Origin: a virus
Lineage: Duplodnaviria; Heunggongvirae; Uroviricota; Caudoviricetes
IMG/VR virus record: IMGVR_UViG_2778261457_000008
Coordinates: 1-15,507 of that record
Length of the DNA: 15,507 bases
Strand: one strand, 5' to 3'
Every line of letters starts with the position of its first letter. Within the stretch, counting starts at the first letter, position 1. Position numbers and translations under genes: made by a program. Shown one piece after another: positions 1-14,163 of the stretch. The notes under the pieces were generated by a model, which saw nothing but the letters and a program-made list of their open reading frames with translations, did not search any database and was not told the DNA's origin.

Positions 1-1248
1 ATGGCACTGAATATTCCATTCAGAAATGCGTACTATCGTTTTGCATCCAGTTACTCATTTCTCTTTTTTATTTCCTGGTCGCTGTGGTGGTCGTTATACG
101 CTATTTGGCTGAAAGGACATCTAGGGTTGACAGGGACGGAATTAGGTACACTTTATTCGGTCAACCAGTTTACCAGCATTCTATTTATGATGTTCTACGG
201 CATCGTTCAGGATAAACTCGGTCTGAAGAAACCGCTCATCTGGTGTATGAGTTTCATCCTGGTCTTGACCGGACCGTTTATGATTTACGTTTATGAACCG
301 TTACTGCAAAGCAATTTTTCTGTAGGTCTAATTCTGGGGGCGCTATTTTTTGGCTTGGGGTATCTGGCGGGATGCGGTTTGCTTGATAGCTTCACCGAAA
401 AAATGGCGCGAAATTTTCATTTCGAATATGGAACAGCGCGCGCCTGGGGATCTTTTGGCTATGCTATTGGCGCGTTCTTTGCCGGCATATTTTTTAGTAT
501 CAGTCCCCATATCAACTTCTGGTTGGTCTCGCTATTTGGCGCTGTATTTATGATGATCAACATGCGTTTTAAAGATAAGGATCACCAGTGCGTAGCGGCA
601 GATGCGGGAGGGGTAAAAAAAGAGGATTTTATCGCAGTTTTCAAGGATCGAAACTTCTGGGTTTTCGTCATATTTATTGTGGGGACGTGGTCTTTCTATA
701 ACATTTTTGATCAACAACTTTTTCCTGTCTTTTATGCAGGTTTATTCGAATCACACGATGTAGGAACGCGCCTGTATGGTTATCTCAACTCATTCCAGGT
801 GGTACTCGAAGCGCTGTGCATGGCGATTATTCCTTTCTTTGTGAATCGGGTAGGGCCAAAAAATGCATTACTTATCGGAGTTGTGATTATGGCGTTGCGT
901 ATCCTTTCCTGCGCGCTGTTCGTTAACCCCTGGATTATTTCATTAGTGAAGTTGTTACATGCCATTGAGGTTCCACTTTGTGTCATATCCGTCTTCAAAT
1001 ACAGCGTGGCAAACTTTGATAAGCGCCTGTCGTCGACGATCTTTCTGATTGGTTTTCAAATTGCCAGTTCGCTTGGGATTGTGCTGCTTTCAACGCCGAC
1101 TGGGATACTCTTTGACCACGCAGGCTACCAGACAGTTTTCTTCGCAATTTCGGGTATTGTCTGCCTGATGTTGCTATTTGGCATTTTCTTCTTGAGTAAA
1201 AAACGCGAGCAAATAGTTATGGAAACGCCTGTACCTTCAGCAATATAG
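1..1248 (+). CDS. cscB: Sucrose:H+ symporter, LacY-family oligosaccharide/H+ symporter (MFS); host flank
   Basis: 415-aa ORF with about 12 hydrophobic segments; N-terminus MALNIPFRNAYYRF and the GIVQDKLGLKK loop match my recollection of CscB/LacY; csc loci are known to lie beside argW. Confidence 0.8.
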   Translation: MALNIPFRNAYYRFASSYSFLFFISWSLWWSLYAIWLKGHLGLTGTELGTLYSVNQFTSILFMMFYGIVQDKLGLKKPLIWCMSFILVLTGPFMIYVYEPLLQSNFSVGLILGALFFGLGYLAGCGLLDSFTEKMARNFHFEYGTARAWGSFGYAIGAFFAGIFFSISPHINFWLVSLFGAVFMMINMRFKDKDHQCVAADAGGVKKEDFIAVFKDRNFWVFVIFIVGTWSFYNIFDQQLFPVFYAGLFESHDVGTRLYGYLNSFQVVLEALCMAIIPFFVNRVGPKNALLIGVVIMALRILSCALFVNPWIISLVKLLHAIEVPLCVISVFKYSVANFDKRLSSTIFLIGFQIASSLGIVLLSTPTGILFDHAGYQTVFFAISGIVCLMLLFGIFFLSKKREQIVMETPVPSAI

Positions 1249-1257
1249 ACGTAAACT

Positions 1258-1301
1258 TTTTCCGGTTGTTGTCGATAGCTCTATATCCCTCAACCGGAAA
1301 A
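1258..1301. repeat. Perfect 11-bp inverted repeat TTTTCCGGTTG / CAACCGGAAAA with 22-bp spacer, 10 bp after the cscB stop
   Basis: Read directly from sequence; no T-run follows, so not a canonical intrinsic terminator. Confidence 0.5.
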
Positions 1302-1689
1302 TAATAATAGTAAAATGCTTAGCCCTGCTAATAATCGCCTAATCCAAACGCCTCATTCATGTTCTGGTACAGTCGCTCAAATGTACTTCAGATGCGCGGT
1401 TCGCTGATTTCCAGGACATTGTCGTCATTCAGTGACCTGTCCCGTGTATCACGGTCCTGCGAATTCATCAAGGAATGCATTGCGGAGTGAAGTATCGAGT
1501 CACGCCATATTTCGCTATCAGGATTCTGTGTGATGGTTACATCGCCCGGCCCAGGGCTGTTTAGTCATCAGCGCTTTCTGACAGTGCTGAGATTTCAACC
1601 TGTTGCAGTAAAAATGAGTAGATATAAGGCAAGTGTGCTGCCAAACCCATCTTTTACGGGGTGAAGGTAGATTTCGTTTGAAGGGTATC

Positions 1690-1704
1690 TGGTGTCCCCT
1701 GCAG
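1690..1704 (-). mobile_element. Attachment-site core: 15 nt equal to a tRNA 3' end (T-stem 3' half, acceptor stem, discriminator, CCA); recalled as argW
   Basis: Minus strand reads CTGCAGGGGACACCA; it lies between the host cscB flank and the first phage gene; no complete tRNA is present in the window. Confidence 0.6.
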
Positions 1705-1777
1705 ACATCTACTTGACGCGGCAGGGGATTGATTAGAATGGTGTTTTTTAGGTGTGAGAAATATTTTACCCGCTATT

Positions 1778-1978
1778 TTACCCATTGGCGCGGCTTAAGA
1801 GCTTATTTTTGAATTCACAATGGTCACGATATAACCATCTTGCTCGCCCGTGGATAACTTTGGCTTTAGGCAGGTCGCCGGACTTAATCCGGTCATAGAT
1901 GAAGGTTTTACCGAAGCCAGTATCGGCCATGATGAATTTCAAATCAACCAGTGAATCAGGCTGTAGTTCGTGTTGCAT
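1778..1978 (-). CDS. torI: Excisionase / recombination directionality factor, AlpA-Xis winged-helix family (TorI-like)
   Basis: 66-aa product MQHELQPDSLVDLKFIMADTGFGKTFIYDRIKSGDLPKAKVIHGRARW…; GGAG 9 nt upstream of this ATG; the track's upstream ATG at 1993 has no SD; position next to att without int matches KplE1-type layout. Confidence 0.7.
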   Translation of the reverse strand: MQHELQPDSLVDLKFIMADTGFGKTFIYDRIKSGDLPKAKVIHGRARWLYRDHCEFKNKLLSRANG

Positions 1979-1995
1979 GAGTGCTATCTCCAAAT

Positions 1996-2013
1996 AGGGA
2001 ATCGAACCTGCAA
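1996..2013 (-). repeat. tRNA T-arm fragment (minus strand TTGCAGGTTCGATTCC) that continues the same tRNA as the 1690-1704 core
   Basis: 16-nt match to variable loop + T-stem 5' half + T-loop; the T-stem 3' half is missing here and is found at 1700-1704. Confidence 0.5.
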
Positions 2014-2020
2014 ATCAGGC

Positions 2021-2043
2021 AATAAAAAACCGCCATCAGGCGG
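2021..2043 (-). terminator. Intrinsic terminator on minus strand (stem CCGCC/GGCGG, loop TGAT, then TTTTTTATT)
   Basis: Hairpin plus U-run read from sequence; overlaps the stop of the 55-aa gene and lies just upstream of torI. Confidence 0.5.
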
Positions 2044-2203
2044 TTTGGTGTTCTTTCAGTTCTTCAATTCGAATATTGGTTACGTCTGCATGTGCTATCT
2101 GCGCCCATATCATCCAGTGGTCATAGCAGTCATTGATGTTCTCTGCTTCGATAACTCTGTTGAATGGTTCTCCATTCCATTCACCTGTGACTCGGAAGTG
2201 CAT
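2036..2203 (-). CDS. Small hypothetical prophage protein (55 aa), missed by the ORF track (<60 aa)
   Basis: ATG at 2203 preceded by GGAG with 7-nt spacing; open frame MHFRVTGEWNGEPFNRVIEAENINDCYDHWMIWAQIAHADVTNIRIEELKEHQTA; terminator follows. Confidence 0.5.
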   Translation of the reverse strand: MHFRVTGEWNGEPFNRVIEAENINDCYDHWMIWAQIAHADVTNIRIEELKEHQTA

Positions 2204-2361
2204 TTATCATCTCCATAAAACAAAACCCGCCGTAGCGAGTTCAGATAAAAGAAATCCCCGCGAGTGCGAGGATTGTTATTGTCTTTTCTTCGTGCATTTG
2301 TCGCACTTTCGGCACCATCCAGATAGGCACATCCGTCCGCAATTAACACATATAGGCCACA

Positions 2362-2643
2362 TCATTTTTCCTCTTTTGGTTTATGAATCTGAATGGTTAT
2401 GCCGCTTTGAGTGGTGACTACAATGACAGAACCAGGCTGAAGACTGTTAAGATTGAATGCTTCGTAAAACGAATCAAAGGCCAGCGCTTTTTTATTCTTT
2501 CGGTTCCACCAACGCCATCCCTTGCTACAGGCTACACTGACAATCCACTGTCCACTCCTGTAAGCCATATAAAACCAGATGAGCAAAACCTGAAGGAAGG
2601 CTATCCAGTCAATAATCGTATATTTCGCGAAGGAGTCCATCAT
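2362..2643 (-). CDS. Hypothetical small membrane protein (93 aa)
   Basis: ATG at 2643 with AGGAGG 4 nt upstream and ATGA overlap with the upstream gene's stop; one clear hydrophobic helix (IIDWIAFLQVLLIWFYMAY); the track's longer start at 2697 would overlap the upstream gene by 58 nt. Confidence 0.5.
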   Translation of the reverse strand: MMDSFAKYTIIDWIAFLQVLLIWFYMAYRSGQWIVSVACSKGWRWWNRKNKKALAFDSFYEAFNLNSLQPGSVIVVTTQSGITIQIHKPKEEK

Positions 2644-3362
2644 TTCGCCTCCTGCGGCGGTTCTGGTAGCGGCATCCAGTGGGTTACTCCATGCCATATA
2701 CCAGTTAAGGTTTCAAACCTTGGCTCTCTGCCTTTCTGTGTCTTGGCATATTCATTCCTTGTATATACGCATTGTCTAACTGCATATCCATTCCATCCAA
2801 TAACTGTTTGTCTAATTTCAGGCATTCGCTCACTACAGCTTATCCAACCATCCGGAGTTACCGGAGAGTTGCCATCCAGCGCGTTCAACTTGTAAGCCTG
2901 GCTTACAGGTTCGGCACTATGAAGCATGGCAGCGCGGCAGGCGTTCCAGCCTTGAACCTTAGCTATTGCCACAACTGCATCGGTAAAGAACATTCTCGCG
3001 GTATCTGGCTCCGGCATTTCATCCGGCACAGCTTGCTGCGGTAACTGTGGTACAGTCAGTGACTCCAATTCAGCGATACGCTTCTCTGCGGCTTCCAGTT
3101 CATCAAGCAGCGCCAAGACGGTAGCCGGATTGGCTGCAGCGATGAATTCAGCATTGGCCTGCTGTTCCATTTGGAAATCTTCATCGAAACCGCTTTCAGG
3201 ATGCGCTCCTTCAATTATGCAAATAGGAAGATATCCAACAACTTCACGATGAATTAGCGCATCACCAGCATCAAGTTTCTCCTCTCCATATTCGAGCGAC
3301 CACACACCACACGTTGCTTTCTCTGCCTTTTCACGCAGTGCCTGATAATCAATCTTGCTCAC
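2640..3362 (-). CDS. Ead/Ea22-like early accessory protein with DUF551-like C-terminus
   Basis: 240 aa; motifs NPATVLALLDELEAAEKR and C-terminal HGVTHWMPLPEPP recalled from Ead/Ea22 and DUF551 families; GTG start with AGGAGG 6 nt upstream, GTGA overlap with upstream gene. Confidence 0.6.
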   Translation of the reverse strand: MSKIDYQALREKAEKATCGVWSLEYGEEKLDAGDALIHREVVGYLPICIIEGAHPESGFDEDFQMEQQANAEFIAAANPATVLALLDELEAAEKRIAELESLTVPQLPQQAVPDEMPEPDTARMFFTDAVVAIAKVQGWNACRAAMLHSAEPVSQAYKLNALDGNSPVTPDGWISCSERMPEIRQTVIGWNGYAVRQCVYTRNEYAKTQKGREPRFETLTGIWHGVTHWMPLPEPPQEAK

Positions 3363-3898
3363 TGGTTGCCTCCTTTGCGAAGCTGGGCGGCGAATTTCTG
3401 TGCCTCTTTCTGGATGAATAGCTTTTCGCTGAAGTTATGGTACTGACCGAACATCTCCACGCCCTGCGCCCGAACTTCAGCCATGAAGGCGTCGGTGGCT
3501 GGGTGCTCTGTCTGGCTATGCATTGCCCATTCAGATAAGTACTCGAAGCAACGGCGAAACTCCTGCCAATCACTGCACATGTTTAGATTTCCGCCTTCAC
3601 ACTCGAACTGGTAATTCTCTAAACGGTCTGCAAACGCTATGCCATTCTCGATGGCACCAAGTGGAATATCAGACTTCATCCCCGCATTCTCTGCCGTAAG
3701 CGCCGCGCACTTGGCCTCAAGGTTATCAATCGTGATTCCAGCAGAACGACACTCCCGCAACGCCGTTTCCAGTTTTGATTCAAGTTCACCGAACTTACGG
3801 ACAAGATATTCAGCGTTTGTTTCGTTAACCTTTAAATCTCGTGGGATGCATTTACCTTTCAGAAAACCATCCATCTCAATTAGTGACATTTGTTTCAT
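3359..3898 (-). CDS. Hypothetical early-left protein (about 179 aa)
   Basis: Long open frame; I place the start at ATG 3898 (GGAG upstream) rather than the track's GTG at 3916, which has no SD; no recognisable domain. Confidence 0.5.
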
Positions 3899-4055
3899 TT
3901 CTTCCCACTCCGCCACATCGCATTCAGATATTTGTTGTCATTAACAGAACCGAAACTCTTTCTCTTAAGCAATTCCTCTCTCGATGGCATTGGCTTTACG
4001 CGTTGGCGAATAATCATTTCTGCCGGAAGAATGCCGGGGTTGTATGCAAGTTCTC

Positions 4056-4346
4056 TCATGATTTACTCTCCACGACCTGGTCAATAGCCATGCTAAGTGA
4101 CATACCTAAAGTTTCGATATGCTGCTGAATATCCTGTAGCGTCTGCGCCTGAGATAACAGGATTTCACGGTTACATAACTCTTTAACCAGATGCTCAAAC
4201 TTGCTGTAATAACCGATACGGCTTAGTGTTTCTTTCCCTGCATTCTCACCTTCTTTGATAATTCCTCTTTCACTAAGAATCAGGTCGTGTTTGGTTCCGG
4301 TAATAACGTATTTGCCGAGGTCGATGTTTAGCTTCATTGTTTTCAT
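4056..4346 (-). CDS. Hypothetical protein (96 aa)
   Basis: ATG at 4346 with GAGGA 7 nt upstream, overlapping the upstream gene's stop; the track's longer N-terminal extension lacks an SD. Confidence 0.45.
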
Positions 4347-4356
4347 TGTTAATTCC

Positions 4357-4650
4357 TCAGTCATTACTGATAGCGCCATAACGTGAGCGGTAATTACGCA
4401 GGCGCGGGTCAATTTCAGGGAAGTGGGTATATGTGGCTTTGCGGAATGGTCGGATTGATGTCTGGTAAATTCGCTCGCGTTCTTCTTTCTCTGCAAGCCA
4501 TATACAGTGGCGAAATTCCTTTTCCTCTTTCGTTTCCTGCGGTAGCGACATTATCAGGTCGTAGTTTTTTCTGAATTTATCCAGCACCTCCGATACGGAA
4601 TTGCCGGAACAGCGGCGCGCGTCGTCCGCACCATACAGAGGCGCTGGCAT
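4357..4650 (-). CDS. Hypothetical protein (97 aa)
   Basis: ATG at 4650 with AGGAG 6 nt upstream; tight packing with neighbours. Confidence 0.55.
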   Translation of the reverse strand: MPAPLYGADDARRCSGNSVSEVLDKFRKNYDLIMSLPQETKEEKEFRHCIWLAEKEERERIYQTSIRPFRKATYTHFPEIDPRLRNYRSRYGAISND

Positions 4651-4663
4651 GATTTTCTCCTGA

Positions 4664-5143
4664 TTAAATTGCGTGAATAGCGTGACGAGGGAAGGGGAGA
4701 GTTACTGGTTCCTCGTCTGGGTAGATAGGTTTGTTATGTTTGTGCCACTCGACATGACATGACTTGCAGAGCCACATCACATCGGTTGGTTTGCTGTAGT
4801 CGCAGTGGTGCGCCTGTGGTTTACATTCTGATCCGCAGCACTCACATTGTGGTGGTCGGATTAGCTTACCGTCGCGCAAAAAATTACCCACAATGATGTG
4901 GGCTTTTCTTTTCCATGGGTTGCTCTGAATGAACCGCTTTTTGGCTGCGTTACACCGTTCTCTTCCGCGTTCCGATGATTGATATTCTCTCCTTGCTGAT
5001 ACTCGATGTGGCAATCCAGCGCGTTCTTTGTCGTATTCAGCCAGGCAAGCCCGGCAAGCGGCAGTTAATCCATCTCTGGATGCTCTTCTGATTTGAAAGT
5101 CCCTTTCTTCCTTCTGTTGATGGCATCTTGAGCAGATTTTCAT
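4664..5143 (-). CDS. HNH endonuclease with N-terminal Cys-rich region
   Basis: 159 aa; C-terminal motif …CECCGSECKPQAHHCDYSKPTDVMWLCKSCHVEWH typical of the HNH fold; AGGAG 6 nt upstream of the ATG. Confidence 0.65.
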   Translation of the reverse strand: MKICSRCHQQKEERDFQIRRASRDGLTAACRACLAEYDKERAGLPHRVSARREYQSSERGRERCNAAKKRFIQSNPWKRKAHIIVGNFLRDGKLIRPPQCECCGSECKPQAHHCDYSKPTDVMWLCKSCHVEWHKHNKPIYPDEEPVTLPFPRHAIHAI

Positions 5144-5152
5144 ATTCAGCTC

Positions 5153-5626
5153 CTAGAACGGAATATCCGAATCGTCGAAGTTCATAGGTGGTTCGCTGTG
5201 ATTTCCCTGCTGCTGAGGTTGCTGTCTTTGTTGCTGACCATTATTTCGCTGAGGTGAAGACTGTTCATTGCCTCCTTGCTTGCCACCAAGCATTTGCATG
5301 GTTCCACCAACGCCCACGATGACTTCGGTAGTGAACCTATCCTGTCCGCTTTGATCCTGCCATTTTCTTGTCCGTAATTTGCCTTCAAGATAAACCTCAG
5401 AGCCTTTTCGCAGATATTCGCTGGCAATTTCTGCCAGTTTCCCGCTCATTACCACACGGTGCCACTCCGTCTGCTCCTTTTGCTCTCCAGTTTGCTTATC
5501 ACGCCATTGTTCTGACGTAGCAACTGTAAGGTTTGCAAATGCCGTTCCTGATGGTGAATATCTGATTTCTGGATCATGCCCAAGGCGACCAATAATGATC
5601 ACCTTATTTACGCCTCTACTTCCCAT
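5153..5626 (-). CDS. ssb: Single-stranded DNA-binding protein
   Basis: 157 aa; OB-fold N-terminus, Gly/Gln-rich linker and acidic tail ending DDSDIPF. Confidence 0.85.
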
Positions 5627-6334
5627 TTATGCCGCCTGTTTTAGTTCGTTAACTCTGATGTTCATTACCTGAACGCATTTAGCCTGCGCCTCCTCGTTGC
5701 CAGCCATTAATTGCCAGTCACGCTGATAACGCTCGATGAGTTTTTTCTTGTCAGTTTCTGTTGACGCATAATCGCTGAAGTCTTTCAGGATTTGTTCGCA
5801 GTCAACCGATGGAGATTTCTGGTTGGTATTTTCTGGTGATGGTTTGTTATCTGATGCTGGGATTGCCCATCCCGGCAGCGATGGAGGGAGCCAGTAAAAT
5901 CCTGTTCCATCCTTCAGTTTTGCCCTGTGCCACCCCTGCTTTTTATCGAGAGATGTTTGTGCGAAACCTTCCTCAAGGTTATACAGATACCGACCGATTC
6001 CCCACTGAACGGCAGCACGCTTCATTGCACCGGAACGACCACCTTTTACGGCTTCTACCTGCGTGTTTTCAGCGGCATCCCATTTGGTTACCCATTCGGA
6101 ATCAATCTTGATTGATATGCCGCATTCAACTCCGCCGTTGTTGGGAATATCGCGGTATTCATTGCGCCATCCTGCTTTGCCGCAAACATCGTCCAGGCGT
6201 TTCATGATTGCCCGGTTCGTGACATAAGCCAGCACCATAGCCCACACCTTGCCATCGCGTGTTTTACCGCTTTGCTGTATTCGCCATTCGATATCTTCAG
6301 GGCTGAATGGCTCATCGAATTTATTCAAATCCAT
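5627..6334 (-). CDS. Rad52/Sak-like single-strand annealing protein (recombinase)
   Basis: 235 aa; pattern …GGRSGAMKRAAVQWGIGRYLY… resembles Rad52-fold annealing proteins; sits in the bet/erf slot beside ssb; GAGGTG 4 nt upstream of ATG. Confidence 0.55.
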   Translation of the reverse strand: MDLNKFDEPFSPEDIEWRIQQSGKTRDGKVWAMVLAYVTNRAIMKRLDDVCGKAGWRNEYRDIPNNGGVECGISIKIDSEWVTKWDAAENTQVEAVKGGRSGAMKRAAVQWGIGRYLYNLEEGFAQTSLDKKQGWHRAKLKDGTGFYWLPPSLPGWAIPASDNKPSPENTNQKSPSVDCEQILKDFSDYASTETDKKKLIERYQRDWQLMAGNEEAQAKCVQVMNIRVNELKQAA

Positions 6335-6342
6335 AATTCACC

Positions 6343-6531
6343 TCAGAATGGTAATTCGGATGGGGAGGAAAGAAATTCGCGCTCATTCATGCGCTCTCTT
6401 TGTGCTTGCCATAAACAAAGTTGTTTCTTTGATTTATCTCCCGCTTTACGCCAGTAACGAGCCTCAGCAATGTGATATTCTCTTTTTAATCGACTTAACT
6501 CTGGAGTTTTCGCCAGCTCTACCGGAATCAT
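6343..6531 (-). CDS. Hypothetical small basic protein (62 aa)
   Basis: ATG at 6531 with GGAGG 5 nt upstream; ATGA overlap with the kil stop. Confidence 0.45.
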   Translation of the reverse strand: MIPVELAKTPELSRLKREYHIAEARYWRKAGDKSKKQLCLWQAQRERMNEREFLSSPSELPF

Positions 6532-6641
6532 TTAGACCTCCATTTTCTGTAGGCTTCGACGGCCTCACGAAACATCTTTTCATCGCCAATAAAAGTGGCG
6601 ATAGTGAATTTAGTCTGAATAGCCATAAGTGTTTTATCCAT
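6528..6641 (-). CDS. kil: Kil-like host-killing / cell-division inhibitor (37 aa)
   Basis: MDKTLMAIQTKFTIATFIGDEKMFREAVEAYRKWRSK matches my recollection of lambda Kil; its ATG overlaps the cIII stop (ATGGATAA). Confidence 0.5.
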   Translation of the reverse strand: MDKTLMAIQTKFTIATFIGDEKMFREAVEAYRKWRSK

Positions 6642-6780
6642 TTTTTGGAACTCCTGGCTGATTAAGTACGTCGATGAGTCGTTTCCATCCGTCACGTAAT
6701 TTACGGGTGATTCGTTCAAGTAAAGATTCATTTAGTTGGAAGGCACCCATGCGAGCGCCTCCCGCGATTGCGTAAATCAT
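6634..6780 (-). CDS. cIII: CIII (FtsH/HflB inhibitor stabilising CII)
   Basis: 48-aa product MIYAIAGGARMGAFQLNESLLERITRKLRDGWKRLIDVLNQPGVPKNG; central helix matches recalled lambda CIII; AAGGAA 6 nt upstream; not in the ORF track, which instead fuses frames into 6528..6731. Confidence 0.6.
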   Translation of the reverse strand: MIYAIAGGARMGAFQLNESLLERITRKLRDGWKRLIDVLNQPGVPKNG

Positions 6781-6804
6781 GGGTGGTTCCTTATGTTGGT
6801 TTTA

Positions 6805-7773
6805 TTAGTAGGTTATTTTTGTTGCGAATACTTCGCCTTTTACGATGGCTGTTATGATATTTTTAGCAACATCTTCTGATGCGCCAACCTTGATAAGGTC
6901 AGCAAGTATTTTGTTATTTACTTCTTTTCGGTGAGCTTTATCCTTTGCTCTACACTCTTCTTCTTCCTTGATTCTTTTTTCTTCTGCTATTCTGGCTTGC
7001 TCTTTTGCTTCAGCCTCGCGCCGGATTCGTTCAGCCTCCTCCTGTGCTTTTCGGCGTTCTGCTTCAATTGCCGCATGCTTTTCTCTTTCAGCTCGTTCTG
7101 CTGCCTCTTTTGCTTCGCGCTGTGCTCGTTGCTCGGCTTCAATGCGTTCACGCTCTGCACGTTCCGCTGCGGCCTTAGCTTCTGCTTCTCGCCTTGCTGC
7201 TGCTTCAATTTCGGCTTTTGCCTTTGCTTCGGCTTCAGCTCTGGCTTTCTCTTCAGCTTCTCTTTTTAAGCGTTCTTCATGCTCTCGCTTTTCCTGCTCC
7301 GCTTTGAGTCTTGCCTCTTCTCTTTGGCGGTCAAATTCGCGATCCATCAAAATCGCTATTTCATGGTCAGACTCAATTTGCTTTGCGAGAGCTTCAGCTG
7401 CTGCCCTAGCTTCTTCTTCGGCTTTAATCCGCGCCTGTTCTTCCTCATAATCAGTAAGAGGCTGGCGTGCCTTGGCTTTCAGCTCATCAAGGCGATCACG
7501 CACTGTCTTGCGGTTGGCATCAATTAGCTTTGGAATTTCCTTCAGTTCAGCAACAAGGTCTTTGCCAAGACCATCGAGATATGTTTTCGTCTGCGCAACT
7601 TTATACGCCAGAGAAGCGATCTCCTTTCTGCCCTTTGCCGTTGTGATATCAGGCACAAAGGACATAACTTCACGTTCAACCTTTTGAAGGATTTCTTCAA
7701 TCTGGCCGGCAGACTGAAATACAGTCATTGCATTTGCTTTTTCAATAACAACTAAATCTGTTACTTCACTCAT
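6805..7773 (-). CDS. Hypothetical phage protein with long Glu/Ala/Arg/Lys-rich coiled-coil (322 aa)
   Basis: ATG at 7773 with GGAGG 4 nt upstream; the track's start at 7827 lies inside the upstream terminator hairpin; about 150 residues of EAKAEAE/RREAE repeats. Confidence 0.6.
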   Translation of the reverse strand: MSEVTDLVVIEKANAMTVFQSAGQIEEILQKVEREVMSFVPDITTAKGRKEIASLAYKVAQTKTYLDGLGKDLVAELKEIPKLIDANRKTVRDRLDELKAKARQPLTDYEEEQARIKAEEEARAAAEALAKQIESDHEIAILMDREFDRQREEARLKAEQEKREHEERLKREAEEKARAEAEAKAKAEIEAAARREAEAKAAAERAERERIEAEQRAQREAKEAAERAEREKHAAIEAERRKAQEEAERIRREAEAKEQARIAEEKRIKEEEECRAKDKAHRKEVNNKILADLIKVGASEDVAKNIITAIVKGEVFATKITY

Positions 7774-7785
7774 ATATCCTCCGTC

Positions 7786-7812
7786 AAAAAAATTGCCCTC
7801 ACACTGGAGGGC
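7786..7812 (-). terminator. tL1-like intrinsic terminator on minus strand (stem GCCCTC/GAGGGC, loop CAGTGT, then AATTTTTTT)
   Basis: Read from sequence; lies just upstream of the coiled-coil gene's SD. Confidence 0.5.
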
Positions 7813-7962
7813 AAAGAAGATTTCCAATAATCAGAACAAGTCGGCTCCTGTTTAGTTACGAGCGACATTGCTCAGTGTATTCACTCGTTGGAATGAATAT
7901 ACAGTGCAGTGTTTATTAGTATGCCTGTCTTTTAACCACATCAGGCTCGGTGGTTCTCGTGT

Positions 7963-8010
7963 ACCCCTACAGCGAGAAATCGGATAAACTCTATTCACCC
8001 CTACAGAGAG
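7963..8010. repeat. Two 14-bp direct repeats ACCCCTACAG(C/A)GAG, 34 bp apart, upstream of sieB
   Basis: 7963-7976 and 7997-8010, 13/14 identical; the second ends 16 bp before the sieB ATG. Confidence 0.4.
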
Positions 8011-8026
8011 CAAAAGAGAAACGCCG

Positions 8027-8608
8027 ATGAACAACTCATGGTGGCAGGAACTAATGCATTTTTTCCTGCAAGGAATGACACTTAAACAGTTGATTCATAT
8101 GCTAATCATCCTAATCATATTGATTATTGTTATGCCTGTAAGCGTAAAAGAATGGATAAACCTGCATAATCCAGAAATCCTTCCTCATTACTGGATGTAT
8201 TACATCCTGTTGTTTTGCGTTAGCTATGTGCTTAACGGCGTTGTTAATTCCGCTTATCACGCTGTGACTGAAAGAATTGAGATATTCGCTGCTCAGAAGC
8301 GCAAATCTAAAGAAGAGAAATACGTGCAAGATTTGTTTGATTCGTTAACTCTTGGAGAAAGAGCGTATTTGGCATTCGCTGTAGCCGCTAATAACCAGCT
8401 AAAGACAGAAAAGGGAAGCCCTGAAGCAATCTCATTGCTCGAAAAAGGGCTTCTTATTCGGGTACCTTCTGCTACTGGATATCCTGAAATCGACCGTTTT
8501 GTTATCCCGGAACGCTATAGAAATGAGTGCTACATTAGGTTTGCTGGGAAGAAAGACAGTCTTATGGATGAACTTATCGCTCAGGATAAGCATGGCAAAA
8601 ACAAGTAA
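8027..8608 (+). CDS. sieB: Superinfection exclusion protein B-like membrane protein
   Basis: 193 aa; N-terminal hydrophobic helices then a soluble domain; opposite strand from its neighbours next to N, as for sieB in lambdoid and Rac prophages; family call is from memory. Confidence 0.55.
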   Translation: MNNSWWQELMHFFLQGMTLKQLIHMLIILIILIIVMPVSVKEWINLHNPEILPHYWMYYILLFCVSYVLNGVVNSAYHAVTERIEIFAAQKRKSKEEKYVQDLFDSLTLGERAYLAFAVAANNQLKTEKGSPEAISLLEKGLLIRVPSATGYPEIDRFVIPERYRNECYIRFAGKKDSLMDELIAQDKHGKNK

Positions 8609-8624
8609 TTAGCAAATTAATTTA

Positions 8625-8897
8625 TCATCTCGCCGTCAGTTGTTTTGATTTCCGGTAGCCTGCCGCGTAAATGGCTACGTTTGGCAGGCAAATACTTCCA
8701 CTGCATTCATCTGCCTTCTTGCAGCGAAGGCTTCCGAGTGATGCTGCTTTGTCTGCTCTGACGCAACCAGAGAGCTTTAGCGCAATTTTTCGCGCCAGTC
8801 GCTGTTCTTGCATTGCCTGCTCACGTTGAGCCTGTCTGCGTGCTCTGCGGCGATTTCTGGCGTTATCGTCAGCCAGATATGTAATGACTACTGCCAT
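8625..8897 (-). CDS. N: Antitermination protein N (P22 gp24-like)
   Basis: 90 aa; N-terminal arginine-rich motif NARNRRRARRQAQRE; C-terminus …YAAGYRKSKQLTAR recalled from P22 gene 24; GGAGG 5 nt upstream; nutL and pL lie upstream. Confidence 0.7.
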   Translation of the reverse strand: MAVVITYLADDNARNRRRARRQAQREQAMQEQRLARKIALKLSGCVRADKAASLGSLRCKKADECSGSICLPNVAIYAAGYRKSKQLTAR

Positions 8898-9004
8898 GTT
8901 GACCTCCGATGATTGACTTTGGCGGTGACGCGCCGGGTGCTTATCTTCCGGTTGCCGTCGTGCAGCTGCACTTCACGTCACCCCAAAGCCAACTACTCTT
9001 TGGT

Positions 9005-9045
9005 TCCCGCATTTCGGCGGGACAATCCCATCAATGTTAAAGAGC
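9005..9045 (-). promoter_or_regulatory. nutL: boxA (GCTCTTTAA) followed by boxB hairpin (CCCGC CGAAAT GCGGG)
   Basis: Read on the minus strand between pL and N; the boxB sequence is identical to the one at nutR. Confidence 0.55.
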
Positions 9046-9091
9046 CTGCCAATCTGTTCCGTTTGGCTACCAGCGTCCTGCTGATGGCTAA

Positions 9092-9132
9092 AGAATACTG
9101 TAGGTATTTTATTGTGTAAATACCCAAGGTAT
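9092..9132 (-). promoter_or_regulatory. pL with OL operators
   Basis: Minus-strand -35 TTTACA (9115-9120) and -10 TATTCT (9092-9097) with 17-bp spacer; operators ATACTGTAGGTAT (9095-9107) and ATACCCAAGGTAT (9120-9132) overlap them. Confidence 0.55.
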
Positions 9133-9265
9133 TTATTTTTGGTGAAATAATGATAAGCAAATGAATACAAAGGATATTTATTTTTTTCGGTGTCTGCTTG
9201 TTCAGTGCTTTTTATGCGGGATATGTGAAGTGGATCCCGATAGCTATTGCTGCCGGGATTATAGG

Positions 9266-9634
9266 TTAGTCAGCGAAGGTTAAGACGAGAATTACCTTAA
9301 TGATGTCTGCTACAACAGACACGGCCATAGATAAACCAAAGACGATCCAAGCCACAGTGATGTCTTCACTACCATCGTATAGAGTTCCGTAATCACTGGT
9401 GTAAGGCGTAAATGTCGCGCCTTGATACAATAGGTATAAGCTTGATCCATAGAGGATAAATGCAGATATCCCTTGTATTGCTATGATCACAAGAATCATG
9501 AAACGAGCTGATCTATGCGCCCAAGCCTGGCTTATTTTTTCTGATAGAGATTTCGCAATAAAAGCATGCGCTAAGCCGTAAATTGTCGAGATTGCCAACA
9601 TCCCAAAAAAGCTTGCTATAGCGGTTCCAACCAT
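9266..9634 (-). CDS. Small integral membrane protein (about 122 aa, about 4 TM) directly downstream of cI, in the rex slot
   Basis: ATG at 9634 with AAGGGG 5 nt upstream, 17 nt after the cI stop; the track's start at 9655 is a TTG overlapping the cI stop; very hydrophobic; no recognisable family. Confidence 0.6.
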   Translation of the reverse strand: MVGTAIASFFGMLAISTIYGLAHAFIAKSLSEKISQAWAHRSARFMILVIIAIQGISAFILYGSSLYLLYQGATFTPYTSDYGTLYDGSEDITVAWIVFGLSMAVSVVADIIKVILVLTFAD

Positions 9635-9651
9635 AAGCGCCCCTTGCGTGA

Positions 9652-10368
9652 TCAAACCAGCCTTAGTTTTGTCTCAATTGCAACGCCTATAATCTTGCAG
9701 TTTCCATTGATTGGCACGAGAGGCCATGCAGGATTAAGTCCCTTGAGGTATTTATTTCCGCCGTCGATTATCAGCTTCTTGAATGTTGCTTCGTTAGAGT
9801 CAGAAAGTTTTGCTATGACCAAGCTGCCGTTGATCGCCTCCCTTCCGGTATCGAAAAGAACGAATGTTCCCTCTGGAATGCTTAACCCAACCGGTGCCGT
9901 CATTGAATCACCTTCCACTTTAAGCCAAAACGCATTACCTTGAATATGCGCGTCAGACTCAAGCCAAACATCTATGTCTTTAATGGTGTATGGTTCGCAT
10001 GCTTCACACCACGAGCCAGCCTGGATACTGCTTAACACCGGATACCTCTTTCCTGCTCTGTATTCCCCTGCATACCTTACGTTGGCATCGCTCTTAAGGC
10101 TTTCTGCCTGTTCTGCAACCTTGGCAGCAATTGACTGGCTAAAATCAGCAATTGAGACTTGCAACAATCGTGCAAAACCAGATGCAACCTCAACGTTTAG
10201 CGCGTTTCTGCCATTAAGATAATGCCCTACCGCTCCTTGGGTGATACCAAGTTCATCAGCGATTGAGTATTGGGTTATTCCCAATTCTTTCTTTTTTGAC
10301 TCATACAAAGCCTTAAGACGCTTAGCGTCTTCGAGCTGTTCTGTCGTCAGTGATTTTTTATTTTCCAT
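9652..10368 (-). CDS. cI: CI-type prophage repressor (HTH + S24 LexA-like autocleavage domain)
   Basis: 238 aa; N-terminus LTTEQLEDAKRLKALYESKKKELGITQ and C-terminal FWLKVEGDSMTAP…FKKL closely parallel lambda CI; divergent from cro across operators. Confidence 0.9.
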   Translation of the reverse strand: MENKKSLTTEQLEDAKRLKALYESKKKELGITQYSIADELGITQGAVGHYLNGRNALNVEVASGFARLLQVSIADFSQSIAAKVAEQAESLKSDANVRYAGEYRAGKRYPVLSSIQAGSWCEACEPYTIKDIDVWLESDAHIQGNAFWLKVEGDSMTAPVGLSIPEGTFVLFDTGREAINGSLVIAKLSDSNEATFKKLIIDGGNKYLKGLNPAWPLVPINGNCKIIGVAIETKLRLV

Positions 10369-10374
10369 AGCTTA

Positions 10375-10445
10375 ATTCTAATAGCTAAGGTACTTAAACT
10401 AAAAATACCCTAAGTATTGATTGCTTTGAATACCTGTAGTATTCT
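10375..10445. promoter_or_regulatory. OR switch: three operators with divergent pR and pRM
   Basis: Operators ATAGCTAAGGTAC (10381-10393, weak), ATACCCTAAGTAT (10405-10417), ATACCTGTAGTAT (10430-10442), centres about 25 bp apart; pR -35 TTGATT (10417-10422) and -10 TATTCT (10440-10445); minus-strand TAGAAT (10375-10380) abutting the cI ATG suggests a leaderless pRM transcript. Confidence 0.6.
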
Positions 10446-10474
10446 TTGTTCATGGTTAATAACGGAGAGTGCAT

Positions 10475-10669
10475 ATGATTCGAATGACACTTGCCGATTA
10501 CGCCAAAATCCATGGACAGGCTAAAGCAGCCAGTGACTTTGGTGTAATCCAGTGCGCTATCAGCAAGGCCATTCTGGCAGGCCGTAACATTATGGTTACG
10601 GTAAAGCCTGATGGCAGTGTGATTGGAGAGGAAGTTCGTCCTTTCCCAAGCAACAAGAAAAACAAATAG
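10475..10669 (+). CDS. cro: Cro repressor
   Basis: 64 aa from the ATG at 10475 (GGAGAG 5 nt upstream); …[40 protein letters not shown] parallels lambda Cro; the track's GTG start at 10469 is too close to the SD. Confidence 0.85.
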
Positions 10670-10675
10670 TAACAC

Positions 10676-10720
10676 CGCTCTTTAACAGTCATGGTCCTCA
10701 TTCCCGCCGAAATGCGGGAA
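10676..10720 (+). promoter_or_regulatory. nutR: boxA (CGCTCTTTAACA) and boxB hairpin (CCCGC CGAAAT GCGGG)
   Basis: Immediately after the cro stop; boxB identical to nutL. Confidence 0.6.
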
Positions 10721-10777
10721 TACAACGCGCACAAGTTGATGCGCATAACTTCTTATTAGTTAAGGAAATACTTACAT

Positions 10778-11056
10778 ATGCAACTTACAAGTACTCGCAA
10801 GAAAGCGAATGCAATTACAAGCAACATCCTGAATCGAATTGCTGTACGTGGTCAGCGAAAGGTTGCCGACGCGTTAGGGATTAATGAATCGCAAATTTCG
10901 CGATGGAAAGACAGCTTCATCCCAAAAATGGGAATGCTTCTGGCTGTTCTTGAATGGGGTGTTGAAGACGAGGAGTTGGCGGAACTGGCTAAGAAAGTAG
11001 CAAGAATGCTGACAAAAGAAAAAGCCCCGAAGAACGGCGAATTCTTCGAGGCCTGA
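10778..11056 (+). CDS. cII: CII transcriptional activator
   Basis: 92 aa; …[39 protein letters not shown] parallels lambda CII. Confidence 0.8.
11014..11052 (-). terminator. oop-like antisense intrinsic terminator overlapping the cII 3' end
   Basis: Minus strand: 11-bp stem with one mismatch (GCCTCGAAGAA / TTCTTCGGGGC), 7-nt loop, then TTTTTCTTTT. Confidence 0.5.
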
Positions 11057-11090
11057 TGTAGAAAGACTGGATCAATCCACAGGAGTAATT

Positions 11091-11237
11091 ATGACAAAAC
11101 AACTCAGTCCTTACCAGGACAAAATTCACAAACACATACTACGTGATCGCTTCCTGTCCAGCTTCAAGCAGCCTGGTCGATTCCGGGCTGAGTTGGAAAA
11201 AGTGAAGCTGATGCAGAAGGAGAAAGGTCATGAGTAA
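11091..11237 (+). CDS. Candidate small basic protein (48 aa) between cII and O
   Basis: ATG with AGGAG 5 nt upstream; no internal stops; overlaps the O start by 8 nt; not in the ORF track (<60 aa); [48 protein letters not shown]. Confidence 0.35.
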
Positions 11238-12090
11238 TCTTGCAACCGTAACACATTTAAGGCCTTCACAACGGCCTGTGGAGCGTCGTGTGGCAGAAGT
11301 TGAAGATGGTTATACCCGTCTTGCAAATGCCCTGTATGAAGAGCTTATCGGCGCTGATTTAACGAAAAATCAGAGCAAGGTTGCCCACGCCATATGCCGT
11401 AAAACATACGGCTACGGTAAAAAGATGGATCGCATCTCTGATAGTCAGTTAGCTCAAATTACCAGGCTGCCAAGACAGAAGGTAAACAAGGCCAAGAATG
11501 AGCTTATCGCGATGAAGGTTATCCTTCGCGAAGGCCAGCAAATCGGGCCTAACAAGAACATCGAGGAATGGCAAATCGAAGGGTGTCACTACTCTGGTGA
11601 TAATGTCACTGCATTGGTGACAAAAAGTGTCACCAAAACGGTGACAGCGCTGTCACCAAAACAGGGACACACAAAAGAAACTATTACAAAAGAAAAAAGA
11701 AATAATAAAAACACTATGTCCGAAAGTGTTCGGACGGAGTGTGAAAAATCACATGACCGTCACGAAGAAACCGACAAGGCATTCGAGGAAATATTCTGGT
11801 GTGCAGGCATGCGGAAAGCCGGGAAGAAAAACGCAGCTTCGGCATTCAGAACACAGTTCAGGGAATGGCGTAAAACTACCAGGGGTACGGCAAGCGAGTT
11901 TGCCACGATGCTGGCAGAAGACATCGCATGCAGGAATGGTAAGCAGTTCGGATTCGACAGGTTGTTACCATCGAGCTACCTGAACGGTCAACGCTGGAAC
12001 GACGAGAAGCCAGAAACTATTCAACCACAATCCAAACCATCATCCGCAATCACCGTATCGAAAACTGGCTACGTGTTTTTCGACAGGTGA
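11230..12090 (+). CDS. O: Replication initiator, lambda O-like N-terminal DNA-binding domain with divergent C-terminal domain
   Basis: 286 aa; N-terminal region (…[14 protein letters not shown]…[40 protein letters not shown]…) parallels lambda O; AAGGAG 7 nt upstream; origin iterons lie inside the gene. Confidence 0.8.
11584..11715. repeat. Replication origin: iterons followed by an AT-rich tract, inside the O gene
   Basis: Palindromic units GGTGACA-N5-TGTCACC (11616-11634) and GGTGACA-N4-TGTCACC (11640-11657), a partial unit at 11596-11610, each followed by AAAAC; AT-rich run 11658-11715. Confidence 0.6.
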
Positions 12091-12093
12091 ACC

Positions 12094-12201
12094 ATGAAAT
12101 CAAAAATCAAATCGCTACTGGTCGCTGGTTATAACCACGGCTGGTTAAGTATTTCGTTTGTAGATTTCTGGTTTAAAAATCTCAATCTGAGGGAATCATG
12201 A
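12094..12201 (+). CDS. Possible 35-aa hydrophobic micro-ORF coupled to the helicase gene
   Basis: ATG 4 nt after the O stop with AGGTG 4 nt upstream; its TGA overlaps the helicase ATG (ATGA); could be chance. Confidence 0.25.
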   Translation: MKSKIKSLLVAGYNHGWLSISFVDFWFKNLNLRES

Positions 12202-14078
12202 GGCCAAGTGAACTTAGCGACCTGCTTTGGGCGCAGGTTGACAGGGTGGCTCCGCACCTGTTGCCAAACGGCAAGAAAGAGGGGCATGAGTGGGTTGCCG
12301 GTAACGTCAACGGTGACAAGGGAAACAGCCTTAAGGTCAACCTTAGCGGCAAGAAAAAATGGGCTGATTTCGCTGAGGGAGACGGCGGTGACATGCTTGA
12401 TTTGTGGATGGCATGTCGTGGAATTAACCTGCATCAGGCTATGCAGGAAGCGAAAGCCTTTCTCGGAATCAAGGATGACGATCACCATTTCGATGCCAAA
12501 CGTGAGAAGAAATTCTCCAGACCTGACCGCAAGAAAATCGCCCGCTACGTTACCAGAACAGAATCCCATCTTGAGTACCTGCAATCGCGTGGCATATCGC
12601 CAGAAGTCGTAAAGCGCTACGAGGTTGTCAGCGGCAAGGTGTGGAATGGAGAACGAGAACTTGATGCACTGGTGCTTCCGTACAAACGCGATGGTGAGTT
12701 GTTGCAGGTCAAGCGAATCAGCACTGAGCGCCCGGACGGGAAGAAAGTCATTATGGCAGAAGGTGATTGTGAACCTTGTCTGTTCGGATGGCAGGCTCTG
12801 GACGCTGGCGTGAGGGCGGTTGTACTTTGCGAAGGCGAAATTGATTGTATGAGCTATGCGCAATACGGCATCTCGGCGTTATCCGTGCCGTTTGGTGGCG
12901 GGAAAGGCGCTAAGCAACAGTGGATTGAGTTTGAGTATCACAATCTCGACAGGTTTGAGGAAATATTCATCTCGATGGACGTTGATGATGTTGGTCGTGA
13001 AGCCGCAATGGAAATCGCAAGCCGACTCGGTGAACATCGTTGCCGTCTTGTTACTCTGCCGTACAAAGACATCAACGAATGCCTGATGAACGGTGTTACC
13101 GAGGATGAAATCTGGCAGTACATCGGCACGGCATCCTACTTCGATCCTGAAGAACTCTACAGTGCGCGAGAGTTTTACCAGGACACTATCAACGCTTTCT
13201 ACGGCAAGCAGCAATATCTGTTTAATCCACCGTGGGAATCTCTGGCAGATAAATTCCAGTTCCGTGAGGCAGAGTTGACGCTGGTCAATGGTGTGAACGG
13301 TCACGGAAAAACGGAGGTTGTCGGGCATATGGCACTTGAGGCAATGCGTCAGGGTGTGAAGACGTGCATCGCGTCACTTGAGCTGAAGCCAGGCATTCTC
13401 CTTAAGCGACTTACCCGTCAGGCGACGTGCTGCAAGATGCCGCCAGTGCTGGAAATTGACTCTGCATTTAAATTTTATGACGAAAGACTTTGGGTGTTTG
13501 GCCTGACCGGAACGGCGAAAGCCGACAGGCTGATCGAAATATTCGACTACGCTCGCCGCCGATACGGGATCCAGTTATTCATCATCGACAGCCTGATGAA
13601 ATGTGGCATAGGCGACGATGACTATAACGGGCAGAAGGCGTTTGTTGACTCGATTTGCGACTTCAAAAACAAAACAAACTCCCACGTCATTCTCGTTACT
13701 CACTCGCGAAAAGGAGACAGCGAAGAAAAACCAACCGGGAAAATGGACGTAAAAGGCTCTGGAGCGATAACAGACCTGACAGACAACCTTTTCATCATCT
13801 GGCGTAACAAGGCTCGCGAGAGAGCGTTACAGAGAGTTCAGAGTGGTGAAAAGATGTCAGAGAAGGACGAACAGTTACTGGCATCTCCGGCATCTGTTTT
13901 GATGCTTGAAAAACAACGTAACGGCGAAGGTTGGGAAGGTGGTGTCCCGTTGTTCCTTGACGAGCAATCGCACCAGTTCCTGCAACTTGAATCAGGATCG
14001 CCATATAGCTACATCGCCAATATGCCGAAATCGGAATATGACGAGGCGTGGCGACAGGAAAACGTGACGGAGTATTAA
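12198..14078 (+). CDS. Bifunctional DNA primase/helicase (Toprim primase domain + DnaB/RecA-like P-loop helicase)
   Basis: 626 aa; Toprim-like VLCEGEIDCMS and ISMDVDDVG; Walker A GVNGHGKTE, Walker B FIIDSLMK, then ILVTHSRKG; occupies the lambda P slot. Confidence 0.8.
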   Translation: MRPSELSDLLWAQVDRVAPHLLPNGKKEGHEWVAGNVNGDKGNSLKVNLSGKKKWADFAEGDGGDMLDLWMACRGINLHQAMQEAKAFLGIKDDDHHFDAKREKKFSRPDRKKIARYVTRTESHLEYLQSRGISPEVVKRYEVVSGKVWNGERELDALVLPYKRDGELLQVKRISTERPDGKKVIMAEGDCEPCLFGWQALDAGVRAVVLCEGEIDCMSYAQYGISALSVPFGGGKGAKQQWIEFEYHNLDRFEEIFISMDVDDVGREAAMEIASRLGEHRCRLVTLPYKDINECLMNGVTEDEIWQYIGTASYFDPEELYSAREFYQDTINAFYGKQQYLFNPPWESLADKFQFREAELTLVNGVNGHGKTEVVGHMALEAMRQGVKTCIASLELKPGILLKRLTRQATCCKMPPVLEIDSAFKFYDERLWVFGLTGTAKADRLIEIFDYARRRYGIQLFIIDSLMKCGIGDDDYNGQKAFVDSICDFKNKTNSHVILVTHSRKGDSEEKPTGKMDVKGSGAITDLTDNLFIIWRNKARERALQRVQSGEKMSEKDEQLLASPASVLMLEKQRNGEGWEGGVPLFLDEQSHQFLQLESGSPYSYIANMPKSEYDEAWRQENVTEY

Positions 14079-14109
14079 ATGACCATCTACATCACTGAGC
14101 TAATAACAG

Positions 14110-14136: not shown

Positions 14137-14163
14137 ATTGGATTAAGAACGAGGGGGATCCTG

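Follow-up and report, generated by a model that had tools for sequence, protein, structure and literature searches.

The DNA analysed here is 15,507 nucleotides of a virus record, positions 1 to 15,507 of IMGVR_UViG_2778261457_000008 in IMG/VR, and this whole stretch is called the window below. It takes in the right-hand end, attR, of a P22-like prophage that is integrated at argW and has a recombination module of the KplE1/HK620/Sf6 family. Prophage DNA starts at position 1690 and extends rightwards; to the left lies a sugar-permease gene of the host, and the ~440 nt between this open reading frame (ORF) and the attR core are degenerate or non-coding, without a long ORF. Read on the minus strand from 2203 to 1690, the prophage end consists of an early-left ORF, its terminator, ATTGCCTGAT, a tRNA-like piece TTGCAGGTTCGATTCC, CTATTT, the Shine-Dalgarno (SD) sequence GGAG, ATAGCACTC, the gene torI, the P arm, and a second tRNA-like piece, CTGCAGGGGACACCA. 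The leader of torI, from terminator to ATG, is roughly 45 nt long, and the P arm that separates torI from the core is 73 nt. The product TorI, an excisionase or recombination directionality factor (RDF), is 100% identical by tblastn to HkaC of HK620 and gp18 of Sf6, and its name is the one carried by this gene's annotation in E. coli genomes. On the whole, positions 1690-2083 are 96-98% identical to the attP regions of HK620, Sf6, Kapi1, IME10 and others. The subject of this study is the first of the two tRNA-like pieces, which very probably is a conserved control element of the torI leader, and neither a part of the attachment site nor a scar.

The two pieces are contiguous segments of the E. 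coli tRNA-Arg(CCU) gene argW with one C in common, because the argW of a related prophage contig (L009, where ARAGORN calls tRNA-Arg(cct)) reads them through: ...GGGCTAA is followed by TTGCAGGTTCGATTCC and then by TGCAGGGGACACCA, after which the phage P' arm begins. This bears out the initial annotation of the window, which had proposed that the pieces joined at the shared C restore a tRNA 3' region; the intact argW does contain the upstream segment, and the attP regions of related phages contain the upstream piece. The position given there for the downstream piece (1704..1690) is confirmed, while that of the upstream piece (2013..1996) takes in two non-tRNA bases, CT, the 16-mer stopping at 1998. 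The gap of about 290 bp is likewise real, since the 293 nt in between (1705..1997) contain CTATTT, GGAG and the 66-aa torI. Each of TTGCAGGTTCGATTCC and CTGCAGGGGACACCA has one exact occurrence in the window, on the minus strand. A chance origin of the tRNA match is ruled out, as 0 of 200 dinucleotide-preserving shuffles match either piece even allowing one mismatch; analytically, an exact 16-mer is expected ~7e-6 times per window. No tRNA gene is detected in the window by ARAGORN, and no Rfam match to a tRNA is found in 1600-2150 even at E <= 10. We also considered a split tRNA-like fold across the 293 nt and dropped it: relatives retain only AGG of the T-stem 5' half, and there is no 5' acceptor strand.

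The downstream piece belongs to what is already known of this module. It equals 15 of the 16 nt of the KplE1 core CTGCAGGGGACACCAT (PMC2951348), with the final T missing; owing to a different bacterial flank, ...GACACCA is followed at the 16th place by G, where K-12, HK620 and Kapi1 have T, and only 15 nt, instead of 16-17, are identical with attP. Between the permease and the core, the host DNA is unlike the dsdC flank of K-12, as fits the variability known for the argW-dsdC region (PMC9659370). The window core matches the 16-nt attP core annotated in HK620 and Sf6, between hkaC/gene 18 (= TorI) and int, and K-12 KplE1 has the same arrangement adjoining dsdC: as there, the core of the window lies just 3' of the RDF gene, with the P arm between them and host DNA beyond. 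It is a peculiarity of the module that attP lies between the RDF gene and int, the prophage intS adjoining argW and torI being at the far end (PMC2951348, PMC8787464). Among tRNA-gene att sites the downstream piece is a textbook case, its identity block comprising the T-stem 3' half, the acceptor 3' strand and CCA, so that the tRNA is regenerated upon integration. The upstream piece differs, since it is outside the identity block, 293 nt off and beyond a gene, and duplicates a part of the tRNA which the phage need not supply.

For the anatomy of the core we infer an arrangement C-O-C' with a 7-bp overlap O, TGCAGGG, flanked by the imperfect inverted repeat GATGTC/GACACC. Among 19 lineages aligned over their att regions, 75% of the cells of this repeat pair, against 10-57% in slid controls, and two position pairs change on both sides. 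The integrase of the argW family evidently reads TTCGAT, because the C sites of most relatives are TTCGATGT(A/C), which is T-loop-like. Of the two pieces, it is the downstream one alone (O and B') that takes part in recombination.

The evidence that carries the reading of the upstream piece comes from its conservation. Relatives of the excisionase were collected by tblastn against phage records, by a six-excisionase profile against one genome per species, from IMG/VR, and by protein search with contig look-ups. All of them are Enterobacterales, and every recognisable att region has the core TG(C/T)AGGG(G/A)AC..., i.e. argW. Among 120 IMG/VR torI loci, chosen by the torI start only, TTGCAGGTTCGATTCC is exact in 114, and the remaining six are singleton variants. 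In a wider range of relatives, the motif (C)AGGTTCGATTCC(C), of 12-13 nt, recurs in about 12 leader types at 4-8 nt (mostly N6) 5' of the SD of the excisionase gene (xis); the window motif is 6 nt upstream of the SD, and the exception is Serratia, where the motif is 13 nt upstream of GGAG. The Escherichia leader reads TTGC-motif-CTATTC-GGAGAT. A metagenome-assembled genome and Citrobacter have GCTTCC-motif-CAAAC(T/C)-GGAGAT, with GATTTCC in Citrobacter, while Edwardsiella and P. stewartii have GAC-motif-CTGT(C/T)C-GGAGAT, Hafnia and two viral contigs TTTTAC-motif-CGG(T/C)AC-GGAGAT, and a Pantoea sp. GGTTCGATTCCTG. In Serratia fonticola the motif is followed by TG, as in the tRNA, and the Enterobacter leader has the variant GATTTC with a degenerate second copy before it. 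The motif is also present in Erwinia phage phiEt88, whose excisionase is 36-39% identical, with different RDF and arm sites; it stands in two exact copies with period 17 in Erwinia phage Midgardsormr38, and in two exact copies with period 13 in the metagenomic contig L492, whose excisionase is 30% identical. Overall, therefore, motif-bearing excisionases are as low as 30-39% identical, with different RDF and arm sites.

When 15 leaders are aligned, GGTTCGATT never changes, whereas the N6 spacer to GGAG and all that is 5' of the motif are scrambled; GGAG(A/T) is kept in all motif-bearing leaders. In the E. coli-type loci the motif has no common single-nucleotide polymorphism, and the torI third-codon positions and the flanks are polymorphic. 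Tandem copies are found in three lineages, namely Midgardsormr38 (L140 ~1955-1990, 17 nt), L492 (1759-1790, 13 nt) and Enterobacter (L149 ~1455-1485, ~13 nt), the first copy being degenerate in the last. Since every copy in Midgardsormr38 and L492 has as its 13th base a C foreign to the tRNA, the tandem copies are a duplicated phage unit and not separate captures of argW. Dryocola and Enterobacter have the terminator and ATTGCCTG in common, and the motif block is cleanly absent in the former and present in the latter. Such a perfect 12-mer, at a fixed place in otherwise unalignable non-coding DNA, argues for constraint, and the motif appears to be more than a scar because it is perfectly conserved amid randomised flanks.

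All integrases with at least 60% identity target argW, and those nearest beyond them fall below 40%; in three of the latter, Acinetobacter AM106, Pseudomonas VW-6S and Yersinia YeP5, neither a T-loop copy nor an evident tRNA core was found. The AlpA genes of Pseudomonas F116 and phi297 have a different layout. A scan of IMG/VR by integrase alignment gave E. coli-type loci only, at 98-100% identity, and a metagenome scan for motif plus SD gave no xis-like match among the 121 matches listed, which are apparently tRNA genes.

Where the motif ends in the tRNA suggests what it may be. The bases of argW to the left of TGCAGGG read ...AGGTTCGATTCC, and the leader motif equals the 12 nt preceding the overlap; because AGGTTCGATTCC directly precedes the putative overlap in argW, the leader motif corresponds to the 'B' arm of attB. 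In about 10 of the 12 leader types the motif follows the tRNA as far as GATTCC, up to the last base before O, and core identity resumes at TGCAGG; in Serratia and Pantoea L154 the match is two bases (TG) longer. We propose that the upstream piece controls excisionase expression in cis; it probably arose from captured tRNA sequence and would then have been retained by selection. The integrase core-binding/catalytic domain, which would be bound to recognise the B arm in attB, may also bind the leader copy, and this binding could couple the level of integrase to the expression of the RDF (and, in the circular phage, of the downstream int), or could act as a decoy of attB. In a second layer, compatible with the first, UUCC of the mRNA would pair with the SD GGAG, and GGUU with the AACC before AUG, so that the ribosome-binding site would be sequestered. 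In favour of the integrase-site mechanism are the exact identity with the B arm, the invariance of CGA, the tandem copies, and the regulation of intS by IntS and TorI at att sites as a precedent: intS is autoregulated by the two proteins through att-site binding, and the RDF gene has been proposed as the main control point (PMC2951348). The likeness to this autoregulation (Panis et al. 2010) is that att-site protein sites overlapping PintS double as transcriptional operators in the same module; the difference is that those are arm-type and TorI sites in attL, while here the candidate is a core-type copy of the B arm beside the RDF gene. That integrase binding, possibly layered on an RNA hairpin, is the mechanism we put forward tentatively, and the whole statement, control element and mechanism included, has in our estimate a probability of about 0.4.

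Several points weigh against this reading. The function proposed for the element comes from comparative sequence. A lone core-type half-site is expected to bind integrase weakly, as known from lambda Int, and a DNA operator model alone leaves the tight SD spacing unexplained. The true C sites vary (TTAGAT, ATCGAT, GTAGAT) and the leader motif does not, so that its invariance is not predicted by integrase binding alone. Next, the motif is missing in Klebsiella phage Chronis, Erwinia phage Ehr49, Salmonella phages Emek/g341c, Dryocola, Tatumella, Rouxiella and Cronobacter, as well as in E. tracheiphila and three Pantoea loci; those named before E. tracheiphila, together with several Pantoea loci, have a TGCAGGGGAC-type core. 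Roughly every second lineage that has this integrase family and core does without the motif, which is therefore dispensable. Conservation within E. coli is not specific to the motif, because the whole leader (-44..-1) is nearly invariant there, and the lineages are not fully independent because they are mosaic, with integrases 62-84% and excisionases 36-88% identical. As for the hairpin layer, the fold of the window's E. coli-type leader is weak (-3 kcal/mol, z = +0.9, no better than shuffles), and there are no compensatory changes among the leaders; since the motif never varies, none can back the hairpin. The coordinates of all features are collected in Table 1.

Table 1. Features at the attR end of the prophage, in window coordinates
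Feature	Position	Strand	Basis
attR core CTGCAGGGGACACCA, the argW 3' end (T-stem 3' half, acceptor 3' strand, ACCA)	1690..1704	-	exact single match
Putative core-type half-site B'/C', GACACC	1691..1696	-	alignment, symmetry count
Putative 7-bp overlap (crossover) O, TGCAGGG	1697..1703	-	flanking imperfect inverted repeat GATGTC/GACACC
Putative phage core-type half-site C, GATGTC	1704..1709	-	alignment, symmetry count
P-arm reverse complement of crossover segment, TCCCCTGC	1721..1728	-	pairs with GCAGGGGA at 1702..1695
torI, excisionase/RDF, 66 aa + stop (ATG at 1978, stop at 1778)	1778..1978	-	translation; tblastn
torI Shine-Dalgarno GGAG	1988..1991	-	sequence
Widely conserved core of upstream piece, AGGTTCGATTCC, then non-tRNA C at 1997	1998..2009	-	
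Upstream piece TTGCAGGTTCGATTCC, 16/16 to argW T-stem 5' half, T-loop and CC	1998..2013	-	exact match
Intrinsic terminator of early-left gene, hairpin AAACCGCC/GGCGGTTT (2046..2027) followed by T-run	2021..2046	-	terminator scan, inverted-repeat search
Early-left ORF, 55 aa, common to lambda and other lambdoid phages, outside the recombination module	2036..2203	-	ORF list, phage matches
Sugar-permease ORF of the host, 415 aa	1..1248	+	ORF list

The alternative that survives best is that the motif acts in RNA only, as the 5' half of an SD-sequestering hairpin which limits TorI translation, its resemblance to the tRNA being a historical accident. The hairpin would consist of an inner helix UUCC:GGAG and an outer helix GGUU:AACC. 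It accounts well for the fixed short distance to the SD, which is N6 in five distinct leader types, and AACC directly before AUG is found in most motif-bearing leaders and in no motif-less ones. Moreover, 90.8% of cells are pairable against 30-75% in slid controls, and in 9 of 12 leaders the two-helix fold is the minimum free energy structure, its dG reaching -11 kcal/mol and its z -2.8 (three leaders have z <= -2.2); the extra T of the Citrobacter variant improves the pairing. However, CGA, unpaired in this fold, is invariant in 15 of 15 leaders while the adjacent loop is randomised, and the tandem copies in three lineages have no place in a simple hairpin. Together with the weak fold of the window leader and the lack of compensatory changes noted above, which count equally here, this makes an RNA-only element unlikely, though not negligibly so.

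The upstream piece may also be a neutral scar. An ancestral attP with a longer tRNA identity, or an attL-type site from aberrant excision, would have had the block of xis and P arm later put between the B arm and the crossover. The similar proposal in the initial annotation, that an excisionase cassette was inserted into a longer ancestral identity segment, may describe the historical origin of the piece: the pieces are exactly adjacent in the tRNA, with the split at GATTCC/TGCAGG, i.e. at the putative boundary of B and O in most lineages. E. coli phages have a match of 16 nt, the piece stands where mosaic modules meet, and it is dispensable, being missing in many relatives. A contiguous intermediate, however, was not found. 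In 5,426 complete E. coli genomes the contiguous junction of terminator, TTGCAGGTTCGATTCCTGCAGGGGACACCA and P' (that is, terminator-B-O-C'-P'-int) never occurs as one piece: all 13 full-length matches to the synthetic junction are in 2 or 3 pieces, typically ~406 bp apart, which is the normal attP with torI inside. A search of the same genomes with a synthetic fusion of the argW 5' part, the piece and torI likewise gave nothing covering at least 80%. Furthermore, a neutral 12-13-mer would not remain perfect in a dozen leader types with unalignable flanks and an N6 spacer, would not show three tandem duplications, and would not hold a fixed distance to the SD, so that a neutral history appears improbable. 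A scar of tandem integrations, also suggested at first, finds no support, nor does any chromosomal scar, since the deposited phage genomes of HK620 and Sf6 contain the piece, as do phages and prophages from other genera and also K-12.

A further explanation is a CII-activated promoter of the pI type, for which the piece would provide the spacer and the second TTGC box, and which would drive integrase during lysogenisation from a start near or after the torI SD. The HK620 record has a predicted 'phage integration' promoter (1664-1702) and a cII site (1689-1701) that both cover the piece, and the Sf6 record annotates a predicted pI at 18404-18431. The lambda pI region TTGCGTGTAATTGCGGAG, with the CII boxes of pI followed by the xis ATG, lies just 5' of xis and aligns with TTGCCTG-ATTTGCAGGT of the window; thus the place is the same, after the early-left ea terminator at the 5' edge of xis, and the partial alignment includes the first TTGC box. 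In contrast to the canonical N6, however, the boxes of the window, TTGC-CTGAT-TTGC, have an N5 spacing, the second of them supplied by the tRNA-like sequence. At the first box, 26 of about 110 E. coli-type loci, K-12 KplE1 among them, read TTAC, and other genera keeping AGGTTCGATTCC have no second TTGC box, so it is the T-loop copy and not the TTGC boxes that is conserved across genera. The annotation in HK620 and Sf6 is a prediction, and it is the only basis for the overlap of the piece with the excisionase promoter region that had been stated for the window. A sigma-70 consensus scan gives no promoter at the piece, although CII-dependent promoters fit this consensus poorly anyway. A pI-type promoter is therefore quite improbable as the explanation of the motif.

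The same region is a boundary between modules. Lambda, HK106, mEp213 and many others have the early-left ORF and the terminator in common with the window and are divergent afterwards; the lambdoid homology extends rightwards from the terminator, which is the mosaic boundary of the recombination module, and in the E. coli-type loci three unrelated upstream modules meet at the T-run of this terminator. The leader in the IMG/VR contig L178 (~4667, minus strand), made up of terminator, GCTTCC, motif, CAAACC and GGAGAT, is almost that of the Citrobacter/L150 type and is joined to an Emek-type excisionase only ~45-50% identical to TorI, which shows exchange at this boundary with a breakpoint between SD/ATG and the xis coding sequence. 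Clark et al. (2001) are said to have proposed lambdoid boundary sequences as recombination linkers, with no specified sequence content. The piece resembles these in that it is within the 'bsq2 boundary sequence' of the Sf6 record (Casjens) and at the junction of at least three early-left modules; it differs in that the conserved block here is specifically the tRNA T-loop/B arm.

Could the motif be a mimic of the T arm in the torI mRNA? GG-UUCGAUU-CC would then be read by TruB, TrmA or another tRNA-binding protein, switching between an SD-free and an SD-sequestered form. Short T-arm hairpins of 11-17 nt suffice as substrates of TrmA and TruB, the invariant block is exactly the tRNA 11-mer G52-C62, and the GG/CC stem of the T arm shares bases with the SD-sequestering helices, so that the two folds are mutually exclusive. 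A 2-bp stem is, however, unstable alone, a true T-stem is present in Serratia (CAGG/CCTG) and, bulged, in Edwardsiella only, and the stop of the motif at the crossover boundary is left unexplained, all of which makes this alternative very improbable.

The last alternative, also raised in the initial annotation, is a bipartite att site, in which both pieces would serve the integrase as recombination homology. In vitro, a 135-bp attR generated with the primer attR-IHF2 (CTCTTAAGCCGCGCCAATGG) supports excisive recombination of KplE1 (PMC3509656 sec. 3.6; PMC2951348 sec. 22). This primer corresponds to the 20 nt at the 3' end of torI (window 1800..1781); the attR thus starts at the torI end, and the upstream piece, ~200 nt further upstream, is absent from the working substrate. 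Kapi1 integrates at argW in 0 of 24 colonies once the 17-bp attB is precisely deleted and the T-loop segment of argW left untouched, against 19 of 20 in the wild type (PMC8787464). Although both pieces are direct repeats of argW and the GenBank record of CUS-3 annotates the upstream 16-mer as its attL/attR core, a bipartite site is scarcely credible, given the excision without the piece (PMC3509656), the loss of integration upon deletion of attB alone (PMC8787464), the relatives that lack the piece, and an origin of the CUS-3 annotation in a 1-nt deletion in the true attR core of an identical prophage. That record (CP000711.1; L001 1-16, L004 1-16) begins and ends at TTGCAGGTTCGATTCC and leaves out torI and the true attR. 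The UTI89 prophage (NC_007946.1 2637300-2638300, L491), 100% identical over the last 2.8 kb of CUS-3, has the 16-mer, then torI, then a core with the 1-nt deletion CTGCAGGGACACCAT inside the putative overlap. A deletion of this type probably hid the true repeat, and the perfect 16-bp repeat was therefore taken as the att core; the deletion may also make the UTI89 prophage defective in excision. The 16-bp repeat is thus a trap for prophage boundary calling, of which the CUS-3 reference record is an example. A pseudo-attB with B, N7 and 'GAGATA' as a mimic of B' was dropped as well, since the B'-like half fits only 3-4 of 6 positions.

Beside the core there is a second structure. TCCCCTGC in the P arm and GCAGGGGA in the crossover segment form a perfect 8-bp inverted repeat with an 18-nt loop, which is kept in the 19 lineages (88% paired against 37-58% in slid controls, at homologous positions in L002 and L140-L163), with compensatory changes in Rouxiella (CCCTACA/TGTAGGG) and Edwardsiella. 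On the xis strand this repeat would fold to a hairpin ending in ...CACCA, like the acceptor/T minihelix of a tRNA. The covarying hairpin, with the tRNA 3' end as a minihelix-like structure, may be part of the same tRNA mimicry as the leader copy.

Two observations concern the torI leader itself. No known RNA family reaches its Rfam gathering score over the region; the best match is STnc130, a Salmonella small RNA, on the opposite strand, with 34 bits against a gathering score of 55 (1928-2055, + strand, E = 0.001-0.002). The STnc130-like stretch is antisense to the torI start, the SD and the T-loop motif, and its end is the bidirectional terminator; it could be an antisense RNA over the excisionase start or a mere similarity of terminators. 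Excisionase entries in databases are often 83-116 aa long and not 66, and because such gene calls apparently continue upstream across the leader with its T-loop motif, the torI leader is often masked in automatic annotation.

The upstream repeat has been noted before under other readings, as a predicted pI/CII site in HK620 and Sf6 and as the attL/attR core in CUS-3. A full-text literature search gave no match to the 16-mer TTGCAGGTTCGATTCC; the HK620 and Sf6 genome papers lay outside it, and an earlier description is possible. The window is a member of the KplE1 (CPS-53)/HK620/Sf6/Kapi1/CUS-3 module and shows no difference from it: TorI is that of HK620 and Sf6, and the 15-16-nt core, the P arm and the order xis-attP-int are the same (PMC2951348, PMC3509656, PMC8787464), while the T-loop copy in the torI leader is unmentioned in the KplE1 and Kapi1 literature examined. 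Because of the order xis-attP-int, int and xis come to lie at opposite ends of the prophage.

In prophages of the KplE1 family, int and xis are transcriptionally uncoupled, and in the characterisation of KplE1 by Ansaldi's group the control of the RDF gene was argued to govern excision (PMC2951348). The cis elements of this control are not described in the KplE1/Kapi1 literature examined, and a tRNA-derived element at the ribosome-binding site of the RDF gene is a concrete candidate. If the upstream piece is neutral, the finding shrinks to a curiosity of module history. A further reading, doubtful in our view but worth stating, takes the T-loop copy for a deliberate imitation of the attB 'B' arm at the excisionase ribosome-binding site, read by the integrase or by a host factor recognising the T arm. 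If true, the same sequence would be read both as the chromosomal target and as a phage switch for excisionase synthesis, and this would be a previously undescribed coupling of the level or state of integrase to the direction of recombination, in phages with attP between xis and int.

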